Assembly: GCF_056746865.1 (NCBI RefSeq)
Contig: NZ_CM163382.1
Reading direction: 5' to 3' (one strand)
Length of the DNA stretch: 64,000 nt
The translations under genes and the position numbers were made by a program. Shown piece after piece: positions 12,534 through 38,037 of this stretch; positions within the stretch are counted from its first letter, which is position 1, and every line of letters begins with the position of its first letter. The notes under the pieces are model-generated. The model was not told where the DNA came from. It did no database searches and was given only the letters and a program-made list of their open reading frames with translations.

Positions 12534-12958
12534 ATCCACCTCAATTAAAAATTGACCCTGTGAAAAATATGGTCGTTTTATAGGGTCGTCGTAAAAAAGT
12601 GACGACGGAAATAATGCGCGGCTATTTTAAAAACGAAGGCGAGTCATTCACCAGATAAATAAATCCAGTAAATTTGATTTAGGGCAACAGCGGGTTGCCC
12701 CATATAGTCATTTGTCTGATTGACAGTGTAGTGCAAGCAAAAGATTTAATCCTTTAGGCGTAATAAAAAATAATTTATCATGCTAATTATTTGATTTTGT
12801 TGTTTTTGCAGGCTTATCAGCAAGAGGGAGTATAACGCGATTATTCGCTCATTTTTCAGACATTTGCCATGCTTAAATGTGATGTCATCACGTATTAGCA
12901 TGGCCTTTCCCGTTATACTGCCAGCGTAAAGGATAAGTCACATATTTCTGGAGGGGAT

Positions 12959-14617
12959 ATGATTCTTGAGCGCGTTGAAATTGTGGGTTTTCGCGGTATC
13001 AACCGTTTGTCGTTGATGCTGGAACAAAACAACGTCCTGATTGGGGAGAACGCGTGGGGTAAATCCAGCTTGCTGGACGCCTTAACCCTGCTGCTATCGC
13101 CAGAATCAGATCTCTACCATTTTGAGCGCGACGATTTCTGGTTCCCGCCGGGAGATATCAACGGGCGAGAACATCATCTGCATATTATTTTGACCTTCCG
13201 CGAATCGCTGCCAGGCCGACATCGGGTTCGCCGCTATCGGCCGCTGGAAGCGTGCTGGACGCCATGCACTGATGGCTATCACCGTATTTTTTATCGTCTG
13301 GAAGGGGAGAGTGCGGAAGACGGCAGCGTGATGACACTGCGCAGTTTTCTCGATAAAGACGGACATCCGATTGATGTCGAGGATATTAACGACCAGGCAC
13401 GCCATCTGGTGCGTTTAATGCCGGTGCTGCGCTTGCGTGATGCCCGTTTTATGCGCCGTATTCGTAACGGCACGGTGCCAAATGTCCCTAATGTGGAAGT
13501 CACCGCGCGCCAGCTCGATTTCCTCGCCCGTGAGTTATCCTCACATCCGCAAAATCTCTCTGATGGGCAGATTCGTCAGGGACTTTCCGCAATGGTACAG
13601 CTGCTTGAGCATTATTTCTCTGAGCAGGGGGCCGGACAGGCGCGATATCGTTTAATGCGGCGGCGAGCCAGCAATGAGCAACGAAGCTGGCGCTATCTGG
13701 ATATCATCAACCGGATGATTGACCGACCTGGAGGGCGCTCGTATCGGGTTATTTTGCTCGGCCTGTTTGCTACTTTGTTGCAGGCAAAAGGCACATTGCG
13801 ACTGGATAAAGACGCCCGTCCATTGTTGCTGATCGAAGATCCAGAAACCCGTTTACACCCCATTATGCTTTCAGTTGCCTGGCATCTGTTGAATCTTCTG
13901 CCATTGCAGCGCATTGCCACCACCAACTCGGGTGAGTTGCTTTCGTTAACGCCGGTAGAGCATGTTTGCCGACTGGTACGTGAGTCCTCGCGCGTTGCCG
14001 CCTGGCGTCTGGGGCCGAGTGGTTTGAGTACCGAAGATAGCCGACGCATCTCTTTCCACATTCGTTTTAATCGTCCATCATCGCTGTTTGCACGCTGCTG
14101 GCTGCTGGTGGAAGGGGAAACGGAAACCTGGGTTATCAATGAACTGGCGCGTCAGTGCGGACATCATTTTGATGCTGAAGGGATCAAGGTCATTGAGTTT
14201 GCCCAGTCCGGGCTAAAGCCACTGGTTAAATTTGCCCGGCGAATGGGGATTGAATGGCATGTACTGGTCGATGGCGATGAAGCAGGGAAGAAATATGCCG
14301 CTACGGTACGCAGCCTGTTGAATAACGATCGGGAAGCCGAACGAGAACATTTAACGGCGTTACCGGCGCTGGATATGGAACATTTTATGTATCGCCAGGG
14401 ATTTTCCGATGTGTTCCACCGCGTGGCGCAAATCCCGGAAAATGTACCGATGAATCTGCGCAAAATTATCTCGAAAGCGATCCATCGCTCTTCCAAACCC
14501 GATCTTGCCATTGAAGTGGCAATGGAGGCAGGACGTCGTGGTGTGGATTCCGTACCGACGCTGCTGAAAAAAATGTTCTCACGCGTGCTGTGGCTGGCGC
14601 GCGGTCGCGCGGATTAA
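12959..14617 (+). CDS. ybjD: OLD-family ATP-dependent endonuclease YbjD (AAA ATPase N-terminus, Toprim-like C-terminus)
   Basis: 552-aa ORF MILERVEIVGFRGINRLSLMLEQNNVLIGENAWGKSS (Walker A GENAWGKSS); recognised as YbjD; overlaps the ybjX stop by 4 bp. Confidence 0.85.
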   Translation: MILERVEIVGFRGINRLSLMLEQNNVLIGENAWGKSSLLDALTLLLSPESDLYHFERDDFWFPPGDINGREHHLHIILTFRESLPGRHRVRRYRPLEACWTPCTDGYHRIFYRLEGESAEDGSVMTLRSFLDKDGHPIDVEDINDQARHLVRLMPVLRLRDARFMRRIRNGTVPNVPNVEVTARQLDFLARELSSHPQNLSDGQIRQGLSAMVQLLEHYFSEQGAGQARYRLMRRRASNEQRSWRYLDIINRMIDRPGGRSYRVILLGLFATLLQAKGTLRLDKDARPLLLIEDPETRLHPIMLSVAWHLLNLLPLQRIATTNSGELLSLTPVEHVCRLVRESSRVAAWRLGPSGLSTEDSRRISFHIRFNRPSSLFARCWLLVEGETETWVINELARQCGHHFDAEGIKVIEFAQSGLKPLVKFARRMGIEWHVLVDGDEAGKKYAATVRSLLNNDREAEREHLTALPALDMEHFMYRQGFSDVFHRVAQIPENVPMNLRKIISKAIHRSSKPDLAIEVAMEAGRRGVDSVPTLLKKMFSRVLWLARGRAD

Positions 14618-15606
14618 CCGCGAAACATCGTGGCCATTTGTGGCTGAATAGCGTCGAGCATCTCATAGCGCCGACGGTATTCAGCCCGTTTTTTACTGGC
14701 GATTTCGGCAATCTCTTTTCGTGCTATCTGTGCTGGAAGGCGGTAATGGCGTTCAGCATCACATACGCCGCCAACCGACTCCCAGAACGCGTTGTAATCA
14801 GCATGGATCTTGCCTTCTTTATCGCGATAACGCAGGCTGCGGTAAATATGTGTTTCATTGCTGACGGCAATGATCTGCTCTACCTGCAAACGTTGGGCAA
14901 ACAGACAGGCCGCTTCCATCACAAGGCGTTTGGGAAATAGCCCGTGGCAGGCTTTCGTCGCATTCTGGATTTCCTGATGTGGAATTTCCCATTTTGCGCC
15001 TTGCAGTCCGCCAATAAACATTGTTCTTTTCCCCTGATATTCACACAGGGTAAACGTGATCTCTGCCAGAGGAATACCTTCGCTGTTGCGGAACAGGATT
15101 GTACTGTCACCTTCTTTATCCATTGAGATCATCATGGTCAGCTCAAGTGTGAACTGCTCGCCGTTTTTGCCTTCCAGCTTCGCCAGTTGCAGCCCGGGGG
15201 TATTCAAATATAAGCTGAATTCTTCCGCCGACATACACCCGCGGAGTAACGCATAATGGTAACGTAACGCCTCCAGCAATTGCTTACGGCTAAGATTCGC
15301 CGCAAGGTAAGGGCGATGCAGACGCACAGGCAGTCGCGGCTGGCGCGTTAACAACACATTGAGATTAGGCCAGTGGGAAAGTTCGTTCATCCACTCAACG
15401 CTTAAACGCGGCATAATCAACGAGCGCAGCAAAAATTTCTGGCGAAAACTACGGCGATGCCAGAATTTACCCGGCCGACACTGTCCACGTGCCAGACTAA
15501 GAAAAAGTGACAGGCTGCTGAGAGATTCAGATGGCGTAAAGGTCCGTTCAGTTAGCTGCGACATATTCATGAAATCAATGGTTATACATGACGTCGATTT
15601 CACCAT
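14614..15606 (-). CDS. ybjX: DUF535/VirK-family protein YbjX
   Basis: 330-aa ORF; exact start uncertain (ATGs at 15606, 15570 and 15564); convergent with ybjD. Confidence 0.78.
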   Translation of the reverse strand: MVKSTSCITIDFMNMSQLTERTFTPSESLSSLSLFLSLARGQCRPGKFWHRRSFRQKFLLRSLIMPRLSVEWMNELSHWPNLNVLLTRQPRLPVRLHRPYLAANLSRKQLLEALRYHYALLRGCMSAEEFSLYLNTPGLQLAKLEGKNGEQFTLELTMMISMDKEGDSTILFRNSEGIPLAEITFTLCEYQGKRTMFIGGLQGAKWEIPHQEIQNATKACHGLFPKRLVMEAACLFAQRLQVEQIIAVSNETHIYRSLRYRDKEGKIHADYNAFWESVGGVCDAERHYRLPAQIARKEIAEIASKKRAEYRRRYEMLDAIQPQMATMFRG

Positions 15607-22139: not shown

Positions 22140-22237
22140 TAATTAATGGTGCTGGAAGGTAAGAATAAAAAAGGGTGCCAGCAGGAAAATGAGATGATTT
22201 TGCTTTATTAACAACGAGCTAAACGTGTAGTATTTGA
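22140..22237 (+). promoter_or_regulatory. Putative AT-rich CRISPR leader
   Basis: AT-rich stretch directly upstream of the first repeat; the degenerate repeat is at the opposite end, consistent with leader-proximal polarity. Confidence 0.4.
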
Positions 22238-22445
22238 GTTCACTGCCGTACAGGCAGCTTAGAAATCGACGGGGTGCGGTAAAACCTTTGCGAACGCGTT
22301 CACTGCCGTACAGGCAGCTTAGAAAGCTGTATTCGGCAAATGAAGTGGATGTTGATGGTTCACTGCCGTACAGGCTGCTTAGAAATTCGTACTTAACGAA
22401 CTGTTGCTCCTCTGCTGGTTCACTGTCGAACAGGCAGATAAAATG
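22238..22445 (+). CRISPR. Type I-F (Ypest-type) CRISPR array: 4 repeats and 3 spacers, with no adjacent cas genes (orphan)
   Basis: 28-bp repeats GTTCACTGCCGTACAGGCAGCTTAGAAA at 22238-22265 and 22298-22325, a one-mismatch copy at 22358-22385 and a degenerate terminal repeat at 22418-22445; 32-bp spacers at 22266-22297, 22326-22357 and 22386-22417. Confidence 0.9.
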
Positions 22446-22844
22446 CGAAAAAAGCTCGTACTTTCGTACGCGCTTTTCTTTAAATATGACGGTGAGGGGG
22501 GGATTGACTCGCTTCGCTCGCCCTGCGGGCAGCCCACTCACTGTGTTCGTGGTCTGTCCAACTGGCTGCGCCAGTTGTCGAACCCCGGTCGGGGCTTCTC
22601 ATCCCCCCTGGAGTGCAATATGCGAAAAAAAAGCTCGCACTTTCGTACGAGCTCTTCTTTGAATATGGCGGTGAGGGGGGGATTGACTCGCTTCGCTCGC
22701 CCTGCGGGCAGCCCACTCACTGTGTTCGTGGTCTGTCCAACTGGCTGCGCCAGTTGTCGAACCCCGGTCGGGGCTTCTCATCCCCCTTGGAGTGCAATAT
22801 GCGAAAAAAAAGCTCGCACTTTCGTACGAGCTCTTCTTTGAATA
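22445..22844. repeat. Tandem direct repeats (~2.3 copies of a ~178-bp unit), each containing the serW terminator plus a ~17-nt copy of the tRNA-Ser 3' end
   Basis: Unit starts gcgaaaaaa(aa)gctcg at 22445, 22622 and 22801; copies 1 and 2 are near-identical over ~175 bp; each contains cggtgagggggggatt, which matches the 3' acceptor/T-arm of serW. Confidence 0.85.
22803..22838 (-). terminator. Putative rho-independent terminator of serW (a copy of this element is present in each tandem unit)
   Basis: On the minus strand, hairpin agctcgtacg-aaag-tgcgagct followed by a T-run, immediately 3' of the tRNA. Confidence 0.65.
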
Positions 22845-37799: not shown

Positions 37800-37820
37800 T
37801 ACCCAATTTTTCTGAATCTA

Positions 37821-37846
37821 AAAAGCGCCTGCGGGCGCTTTTTTTG
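37821..37846 (+). terminator. Putative rho-independent terminator of serS
   Basis: Hairpin agcgcctgcgggcgct followed by ttttttt. Confidence 0.75.
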
Positions 37847-38037
37847 TCTCCCTTTGATACCGAACAATAATTACTCCTCACTTACACGTAATACTACTTT
37901 CGAGTGAAAATCTACCTATCTCTTTGATTTTCAAATTATTCGATGTATACAAGCCTATATAGCGACCTGCTATAGAAATAATTACACAATACGGTTTGTT
38001 ACTGGAATCAATCGTGAGCAAGCTTGAGTGAGCCATT

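Follow-up and report, generated by a model that had tools for sequence, protein, structure and literature searches.

The stand-alone OLD protein YbjD (OldB) of Escherichia coli: a vertically inherited Enterobacterales core gene under purifying selection that is strongest in its Toprim nuclease domain

What is a stand-alone OLD (overcoming lysogenization defect) protein for when its gene is a fixed part of the bacterial chromosome? This question is raised by ybjD, recently renamed oldB, which we examined in a 64,000-nucleotide stretch of DNA (contig NZ_CM163382.1 of the NCBI RefSeq assembly GCF_056746865.1; hereafter the window, in whose coordinates all positions are given). The product is predicted to join an ATPase head to a Toprim nuclease, and stand-alone relatives such as P2 Old act against phage. 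From the evidence assembled below we conclude, with good confidence, that ybjD is the intact, expressed and monocistronic gene of a stand-alone OLD enzyme, that it belongs to the core genome of the Enterobacterales and that its nuclease is under selection. The family assignment and the first phenotypes of ybjD have already been published; what we add is an analysis of its core-genome status, synteny and selection, together with the invariance of the nuclease site across the family. Whether the enzyme serves defence or housekeeping is weighed where the evidence on each side is given.

The gene in the window is the known ybjD, with no gene-level difference from the published one. Its DNA is 100% identical to that of E. 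coli 118UI, where RefSeq labels it “ybjD: ATP-dependent endonuclease”, and the region is 98.8% identical to that of a K-12-type O16:H48 strain; the product agrees with K-12 YbjD (b0876) in its length of 552 amino acids (aa), in K35, in the Toprim boundary at about residues 377/378 and in the aqpZ/ybjX context. A preliminary description of the window, made from the sequence alone, had read an open reading frame (ORF) with the Walker A motif GENAWGKSS here, and the motif does lie at residues 29-37 of a 552-codon ORF. Pfam matches, annotated identical DNA and the ratio of nonsynonymous to synonymous substitution rates (dN/dS) show this to be a genuine gene and not a chance ORF. The description was also right to call the gene standalone: in the RefSeq annotation the adjoining genes are aqpZ (-), ybjX (-) and macAB (+) only. 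Among the annotated neighbors there is no helicase within 9 kb on either side of ybjD and no adjoining reverse transcriptase, and an Rfam search of its surroundings gave neither a retron nor any other RNA family.

Of 5426 complete E. coli genomes, 5424 (99.96%) have one copy of ybjD, always at nucleotide identities of at least 95%, as against 17 of the 5426 (0.3%) for P2 old. For the wider family we scanned one genome per species, which gave 166 loci, 80 of which were kept (Enterobacteriaceae genera; one record is titled Chryseobacterium). All 80 kept loci hold a full-length orthologue at 80-99% aa identity, with 78 matching from residue 1 to residue 552, and in all 80 ybjD stands alone. The gene order lysO-aqpZ-ybjD-[ybjX]-macA is conserved across the kept Enterobacteriaceae loci, so that the conservation across this family, which the preliminary description had left to be checked, is both complete among these loci and syntenic. 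The lysO-ybjD-macA locus recurs in Yersinia (65% identity) and Proteus (56%), bringing the number of Enterobacterales families to three. On this evidence ybjD differs from P2 old, Gabija and the retron OLDs in being a vertically inherited Enterobacterales core gene whose housekeeping locus is fixed, and the genomic hallmarks of defence genes are missing from it: its distribution is not patchy, and it lies in neither a defence island nor a mobile element.

We rejected a phage or plasmid origin of ybjD on the nature of its close matches. A search of 50,697 phage records returned no genuine close homologue, the one close match being an unannotated 2-kb record with a ybjD fragment. Most of the close “plasmid” matches (at least 56% identity) come from records of megabase size, with ybjD-ybjX also present on a few small E. 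coli records, and the other approximately 180 plasmid matches are more distant OLD-family proteins below 60% identity. The “phage” record OR845570.1, which carries a ybjD fragment, and the “plasmid” records of 0.7-5 Mb with a chromosomal ybjD locus (CP088669.1, CP061270.1, NZ_OL790696.1, NZ_OL790812.1 and others) look like mislabeling or host contamination, and such records could mislead inferences about mobility.

Strong purifying selection acts on ybjD and is strongest in the nuclease domain. The dN/dS ratio (NG86) is 0.015 against E. albertii and 0.03-0.09 against other genera, as low as or below the ratios of aqpZ, macA and lysO; the synonymous rate (dS) is saturated (>1.5) in most of the genus-level comparisons, a point that counts against our account and leaves the E. 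albertii ratio and the comparisons of the nonsynonymous rate (dN) as the reliable ones. Among the latter, dN of residues 376-552 is below that of the ATPase half in eight of eight comparisons and mostly about half of it (ratios 0.33-0.61).

The preliminary description had placed YbjD in the OLD family, and sequence profiles, predicted fold and a residue-for-residue match to the motifs of P2 Old all agree with it. Pfam assigns residues 1-375 to DUF2813 (E 2e-160) and residues 376-440 to OLD-like_TOPRIM (PF20469; E 4e-16), with the generic matches AAA_15, AAA_21 and SMC_N at the P-loop near the N-terminus, while no NCBIfam model reached its cut-off for YbjD and our literature search found nothing under the name DUF2813. 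The best PADLOC models are GajA (7e-80) and Old (2e-24). Searching 1.84 billion representative proteins gave 1979 relatives of YbjD, 335 of them below 1e-30, and 62 full-length relatives at 28-54% identity were aligned; this alignment is the source of all conservation counts out of 62 below and of the AlphaFold (AF2) model. The model is predicted with a mean predicted local distance difference test (pLDDT) score of 88.5 and a predicted template modeling (pTM) score of 0.88. Foldseek matches it to GajA (~1e-19 to 5e-20) and TsOLD (1e-17), and the family profile finds the same two among Protein Data Bank (PDB) sequences at about equal strength (TsOLD 4e-21, GajA 2e-19). As modeled, YbjD would consist of an N-terminal ABC/SMC-like ATPase head, a C-terminal Toprim nuclease and a small C-terminal helical bundle. 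Across the family, conservation peaks in the Toprim core, whose mean identity to the E. coli protein is 53%, versus 28% for the ATPase.

The motifs of the ATPase head are present (Table 1), although across the 62 relatives they are slightly less strict than the nuclease site. In Walker A, which fits the pattern GxxxxGK[ST], G29 and E30 are invariant, G34 is kept in 61/62 and K35 in 56/62. The sequence LLLIEDPETRLHP follows the OLD Walker B/D-loop pattern hhhh[DE]xPExxLHP, and in BLASTP alignments its E293 (57/62) and H300 (61/62) fall on P2 Old D299 and H306, both of which have been validated by mutagenesis (PMC7049728). The canonical His of the H-loop is replaced: N323 aligns with H332 of P2 Old and with the His of sTHSpell in GajA, and the position is occupied across the relatives by N in 37, H in 10, Q in 9 and Y in 5. 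His-to-Asn exchanges at the H-loop are frequent among Class 1 OLD homologues (PMC7049728), and Asn323 is best taken as a tolerated variant that does not exclude YbjD from the OLD family but that would predict altered or slow hydrolysis. Between strands of the ATPase fold the model places a series of helices (residues 177-195, 202-223, 228-234, 242-255 and 259-277) at lower, in part low, pLDDT. The dimerization domain of Ts OLD is inserted at the equivalent place of its ATPase fold (PMC7049728), and the insertion in YbjD is probably its counterpart.

No other feature of the family is as well conserved as the nuclease site, and loss of its catalytic residues, which the preliminary description had named as evidence against its assignment, is not seen. 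The EGETE motif shows no variation at its three Glu and its Gly (62/62), with E385 and E389 aligned to E398/E402 of P2 Old and E400/E404 of Bp OLD; D438 (61/62) and D440 (62/62) align with P2 Old D453/D455 and Bp OLD D455/D457. Directly after Toprim strand 4 come D472 (61/62) and E474 (62/62), in keeping with the [STD]-x-E pattern of the second OLD metal site, which by position would correspond to S478-x-E480 of Ts OLD, T506-x-E508 of Bp OLD and D541-x-E543 of P2 Old (PMC7049728). Past this presumed metal-B helix the model has helices at 500-510, 513-527 and 534-551. K513, at the start of the second of these, and P514 are invariant in 62/62; K513 is the only invariant basic residue of the C-terminal region, 39 residues beyond E474, and would be the counterpart of Bp K562, P2 K550 and Ts R487. 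R479, five residues after E474, is not conserved (R 15, H 10, E 6, K 6).

This degree of conservation makes it very improbable that ybjD is a decaying remnant, left over from a GajA-like gene whose helicase partner was lost and now on its way to losing its function. Such a history would account for GajA being the best PADLOC model, for the Asn in place of the H-loop His and for a deletion without phenotype (PMC13261556). It sits badly with dN/dS values of 0.015-0.09, a full-length ORF in every kept locus, catalytic residues that are invariant or nearly so in 62 diverse relatives, and a conserved -10 hexamer and Shine-Dalgarno sequence before a gene that is expressed; an Asn at the H-loop is, besides, common in functional-looking OLDs. 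The level of purifying selection and the intact catalytic residues led us to reject a pseudogene or relic.

Table 1. Features of ybjD and its surroundings in window coordinates; residue numbers are those of YbjD.
Feature	Position	Strand	Basis and details
ybjD (oldB) coding sequence, 552 aa plus stop, ATG start	12959..14617	+	ORF list, sequence, RefSeq annotation, Pfam
Probable sigma-70 -10 hexamer TATACT of ybjD's own promoter	12914..12919	+	upstream alignment
Shine-Dalgarno GGAGG, 4 nt before ATG	12950..12954	+	conserved in 22 Enterobacteriaceae upstream sequences
Walker A/P-loop GENAWGKSS, residues 29-37 (K35)	13043..13069	+	sequence
Helical insertion in the predicted ATPase head, residues ~177-277	13487..13789	+	AF2 model
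Walker B and D-loop LLLIEDPETRLHP, residues 289-301 (E293, H300)	13823..13861	+	BLASTP to P2 Old
H-loop TTNSG, residues 321-325, Asn323 replacing the canonical His	13919..13933	+	alignments
Toprim core, residues 376-470	14084..14368	+	PF20469; model strands 380-384, 409-413, 432-437, 465-467
EGETE: E385 (metal A), E389 (metal B)	14111..14125	+	alignments
DxD: D438-G-D440 (metal A)	14270..14278	+	alignments
D472-M-E474, putative second half of metal site B	14372..14380	+	conservation and position
K513, putative catalytic Lys	14495..14497	+	conservation and position
C-terminal helical region, residues 471-552	14369..14614	+	
TTAA shared by the stop codons of ybjD (+) and ybjX (-)	14614..14617	.	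sequence
ybjX (VirK/DUF535), RefSeq 318 aa	14614..15570	-	longest ORF 14614-15606, 330 aa; Pfam DUF535 E 3e-102

By context YbjD is a Class 1 OLD, that is, a single gene without a helicase, retron or split partner, and it has been published as such (PMC13261556; PMC6755086), having served as a family search seed in Schiltz et al. 2019, where it was placed in Class 1 (PMC6755086). Its C-terminal region appears closer to Class 2 than to the Class 1 type of Ts OLD, which we infer from the extra helices, the placement of K513, the lack of conservation at R479 and the preference of the C-terminal profile. In Ts OLD (PDB 6P74, Class 1) a C-terminal helical domain is missing and R487 comes from a loop, 7 residues past the metal-B Glu, whereas YbjD has three extra C-terminal helices, which bear the invariant K513. 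A profile of this region prefers the C-terminal regions of the Class 2 Bp and Xcc OLDs (1.7e-6 and 6.6e-6) over TsOLD (2e-3), 164 of its modeled residues superpose on Bp OLD at 2.4 A, and a Lys from the C-terminal helical region would match Bp K562.

The top PADLOC model stands for the Class 2 proteins, of which structures are known for B. cereus GajA (8SM3/8U7I) and for the C-terminal region of the B. pseudomallei OLD (6NK8), but YbjD at 552 aa is shorter than a typical GajA (~578-594 aa) and has no GajB, the UvrD-like helicase, next to it. Five distant DUF2813 homologues (P0122, P0126, P0263, P0155 and P0212) also have no helicase partner, some of their neighboring ORFs being without a Pfam record, and we rejected Gabija (GajA plus GajB) despite the GajA match on the strength of these six loci. 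Two of the distant homologues, on longer contigs, have housekeeping neighbors, e.g., thiL-pgpA/dxs-ispA-xseB. A Class 3 OLD of the retron Eco8 type or a PARIS-type context was likewise rejected, given the annotated neighbors and the absence of retron RNA near ybjD. The “ybjD” of SGI1 (S024) is a different, helicase-paired OLD that shares only the annotation label (PMC9035990).

Class names need some care here, since “Class 1 OLD” denotes different sets when it is applied by defence finders and when it is defined by context. DefenseFinder places Class 1 OLD nucleases in 0.45% of genomes (PMC12392090), a count from which the YbjD/DUF2813 clade was presumably left out.

Some DUF2813/OLD-Toprim relatives are 800-1900 aa long (P0149, P0162, P0165, P0166, P0175 and P0196; loci L089 and L090), and none of the six carries an extra Pfam domain. 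P0162 and P0166 keep Walker A, TTNS, EGETE, DGD, DIEH and KPGLA, separated by long low-complexity inserts, one of which follows the metal-B helix and precedes the invariant Lys. P0162 is surrounded by housekeeping genes, and P0149 has one unannotated neighbor only.

The preliminary description considered the function of the gene in E. coli essentially uncharacterised, which is now out of date: a report in MicroPubl Biol (May 2026) proposes the name oldB and describes phage experiments (PMC13261556). The Keio deletion of ybjD is viable and leaves the plating of 68 BASEL phages unchanged, while expression from pBAD at 0.001% arabinose, a non-toxic inducer level, reduces plaquing of Bas18 and Bas20 and gives smaller plaques of Bas64-68, a weak effect on few phages (PMC13261556). 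Mutation of three acidic Toprim residues, or deletion of the Toprim domain (construct 1-377), leaves this effect unchanged; deletion of the ATPase abolishes it, and K35A keeps it but is more toxic (PMC13261556). The phage-sensitivity phenotype to which the preliminary description had tied its case is therefore found in one half only, there being none upon deletion and a reduction of plaquing upon over-expression, and that half is independent of the nuclease.

It is possible, although we stop short of calling it probable, that ybjD is a dedicated single-gene anti-phage system (the Class 1 OLD “OldB”) that senses infection, kills phage or cell and has become fixed in the core genome. Its family and the over-expression effect on Bas18, Bas20 and Bas64-68 at a non-toxic inducer level (PMC13261556) speak for this, as do two stand-alone precedents that act against phage, P2 Old and the Vibrio cholerae OLD (Vc OLD; PMC12392090); the native level may be too low for an effect, or the cognate phages may be missing from BASEL. 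P2 Old is a single-gene OLD of the same ABC ATPase and Toprim build, and its Walker B, D-loop, Toprim Glu pair and DxD motif align with those of YbjD, but the two share only 28% identity across roughly a third of the protein, the H-loop has His in P2 Old and Asn in YbjD, and K550 of P2 Old follows the metal-B E543 by 7 residues whereas K513 follows E474 by 39 and lies on a separate helix. P2 old is a rare gene carried by prophages, ybjD a chromosomal one that is universal in E. coli; P2 Old kills recBC(ts) cells and YbjD does not (PMC13261556). Vc OLD, a Class 1 protein, resembles YbjD in being stand-alone, bacterially encoded and independent of RecBCD in its action, but it defends at the level tested and needs its ATPase residues, whereas the phenotype of YbjD survives both K35A and Toprim deletion (PMC12392090; PMC13261556).

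Weighing against a dedicated defence system are the deletion without effect on 68 BASEL phages, an over-expression effect that needs neither the nuclease nor the Walker A Lys, presence in 99.96% of E. coli genomes versus 0.3% for P2 old, a locus that is fixed and vertically inherited in three Enterobacterales families, very strong purifying selection without a sign of diversification, and the lack of a defence island or a close phage copy, close “plasmid” matches looking chromosomal and the other ~180 being below 60% identity. To our knowledge, universal, vertically inherited and highly constrained behavior of this kind is atypical of known dedicated defence genes. The preliminary description was right to call a defence role speculation, and the Toprim-independent effect of over-expression is at best part of the biology of YbjD. 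Because purifying selection is strongest on the nuclease, the function that selection keeps needs the nuclease, and the published assay did not detect it.

The core, syntenic distribution is more in keeping with a housekeeping gene than with a mobile gene of phage defence. As a tentative reading, ybjD may encode an enzyme of genome or RNA maintenance, an SMC/Rad50/RecF-like ATPase with a Toprim nickase that works on host nucleic acid in, e.g., repair, chromosome processing or RNA maturation, the anti-phage effect being a side-effect of an over-produced DNA-binding ATPase head. This would agree with a core, syntenic and strongly constrained gene that is conserved best at its nuclease site, with the thiL-pgpA/dxs-ispA-xseB-type surroundings of distant homologues on longer contigs, with an ATPase head whose closest folds after the OLDs are SMC, Rad50, RecF and RecN, with an OLD active site that mirrors that of RNase M5 (PMC6755086), and with a phage phenotype that is Toprim-independent and an over-expression that is toxic (PMC13261556). 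It also has a precedent in Cran1 of Saccharolobus islandicus, a chromosomal OLD ATPase-nickase that is apparently non-antiviral and essential for the cell cycle and which, when over-expressed, is toxic through its ATPase domain (PMC12796447); we liken the two by description, and Cran1 differs in being archaeal, essential and cell-cycle regulated where ybjD is non-essential. On the other side, ybjD is non-essential, and none of the 16 papers found to mention it describes an effect on growth, repair or RNA processing; a pathway is not suggested by any co-conserved partner gene, regulatory ties to repair or stress responses did not come up, with no search aimed at them, and the basis of the proposal is confined to evolutionary pattern and analogy. 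Carried to the family, the same idea would make YbjD/OldB and the stand-alone DUF2813 clade not primarily immune but a bacterial counterpart of Cran1, a housekeeping ATP-gated Toprim nuclease; we offer this, too, only as a tentative suggestion.

If ybjD is a functional stand-alone OLD enzyme, as we conclude, its working may be pictured as follows. YbjD would form a dimer through the helical insertion, and nucleotide binding at the heads (K35, E293, H300 and N323) would act more as a switch than as a motor, as suggested by the H-loop Asn and by a K35A variant that keeps the phenotype and is more toxic. The switch would gate a two-metal Toprim site that nicks or cleaves nucleic acid, with E385, D438 and D440 binding metal A, E389, D472 and E474 binding metal B, and K513 stabilizing the transition state; DNA would be the likeliest substrate and RNA the alternative. 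P2 Old is reported to cut the anticodon arms of tRNA (Govande et al. 2025).

Besides the saturation of dS, several points weigh against this account. Nuclease activity, the substrate (DNA or RNA), the oligomeric state and the ATP dependence of YbjD are carried over from homologues, and the roles given to D472 and E474 at metal B and to K513 as catalytic Lys are drawn from conservation and position; alignments of hidden Markov models (HMMs) to solved OLDs end near residue 443, leaving the C-terminal 110 residues unmapped by sequence. The only published phenotypes need neither the Toprim domain nor its three acidic residues. The deletion is viable and shows no phage phenotype, so that a selected function is invisible under the conditions tested.

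Upstream of ybjD the only conserved blocks are the hexamer TATACT, kept in 21 of 22 aligned upstream regions (the E. coli window and 21 other species) and missing in Buttiauxella, and the Shine-Dalgarno sequence. A simple promoter consensus scan did not pick up TATACT, and its function as a promoter element is presumed from its conservation. The two blocks fit an ancestral, independently expressed gene, and expression of ybjD has been detected by reverse transcription quantitative PCR (RT-qPCR; PMC13261556). Directly upstream of the conserved -10 lies a near-perfect 39-bp palindrome, GCCATGCTTAAATGTGATG T CATCACGTATTAGCATGGC, at 12866-12904, 55-93 bp upstream of the ybjD ATG, with a predicted RNA fold of -20.2 kcal/mol (z -5.9). 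It is single-copy and present in 5400 of 5426 E. coli genomes, but in the upstream alignment it is confined to Escherichia and lacking in other genera and is therefore not part of the ancestral gene. We rejected it as a conserved operator of ybjD, since, unlike the -10 and the Shine-Dalgarno sequence, it is not kept across genera; it may act as an operator or terminate an upstream transcript. The aqpZ-ybjD intergenic region has otherwise been used merely as an insertion site in a study of lesion tolerance (PMC9203016).

At its other end ybjD meets ybjX. The 4-bp overlap of stop codons noted in the preliminary description is exact: the TAA of ybjD occupies 14615-17 (+) and that of ybjX 14614-16 (-). 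One may ask whether the two are coupled in function or regulation, as an excludon or two-gene system in which the overlap forces mutual antisense transcription, and we consider this unlikely. The overlap is kept in 57 of the 63 Enterobacteriaceae loci that have ybjX even though YbjX identity drops to 46-57%, ExcludonFinder lists ybjD-ybjX as a convergent excludon in E. coli (PMC12288877), and the genes leave no space in which an intergenic terminator could lie, the only terminator-like hairpins being weak ones inside the coding region of the partner. A cathelicidin-derived peptide up-regulates ybjD (1.31) in uropathogenic E. coli (UPEC), in a list that includes arnF (PMC6737244); one might speculate that this “induction” is antisense read-through from ybjX, if the RNA sequencing (RNA-seq) was unstranded and ybjX was induced, which would then fit a pair.

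Yet ybjX is missing from 18 of 81 loci (L002-L081 included), among them Klebsiella, Raoultella, some Enterobacter and others, and there ybjD is unchanged at 82-87% identity. Across loci YbjX ranges over 46-98% aa identity versus 80-99% for YbjD, and the dN/dS of ybjX (0.06-0.25) is 2.5-7 times that of its neighbors. The genes are set apart by an insertion of ~1.1 kb in Kluyvera and by a 136-bp spacer in Yersinia. Because ybjD ends in GAY-TAR, a stop on the opposing strand in that frame is automatic, and the overlap can persist without selection. An obligatory functional pair was accordingly rejected on the frequent loss of ybjX, its fast evolution and its separation in Kluyvera and Yersinia; the overlap is an inherited arrangement and not the mark of a two-gene system, although mutual antisense transcription may occur.

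Two further elements of the window lie away from ybjD. Between clpA and tRNA-Ser/infA, at 22238-22385 (+), are three 28-nt CRISPR-DR4 repeats (RF01317, type I-F-like) with a 60-bp period, and we therefore read them as a small CRISPR array; no cas gene is annotated within ~2 kb downstream or ~13 kb upstream of it. The RefSeq “hypothetical protein” WP_012602745.1 of 118UI (about 22143-22541, -) lies over the array, and its ORF is probably spurious. The small RNA STnc130 (RF02084) has a full-length match (140 bits) at 37813-37947 (-).

What ybjD presents, then, is a mismatch: no part of this universally retained, vertically inherited gene is more strictly conserved than the nuclease site, and yet the sole phenotype so far ignores that site. 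It may be read in two ways, as constitutive OLD defence by the core genome with other real targets, or as a bacterial housekeeping role of an OLD protein like that of Cran1. Were the latter to hold for the clade, homology would have been the sole reason for assigning a whole group of “Class 1 OLD” proteins to defence. With either reading, the inference of “defence” from homology would become more precise, and ybjD would offer a tractable entry, in K-12, to the function of stand-alone OLD proteins.

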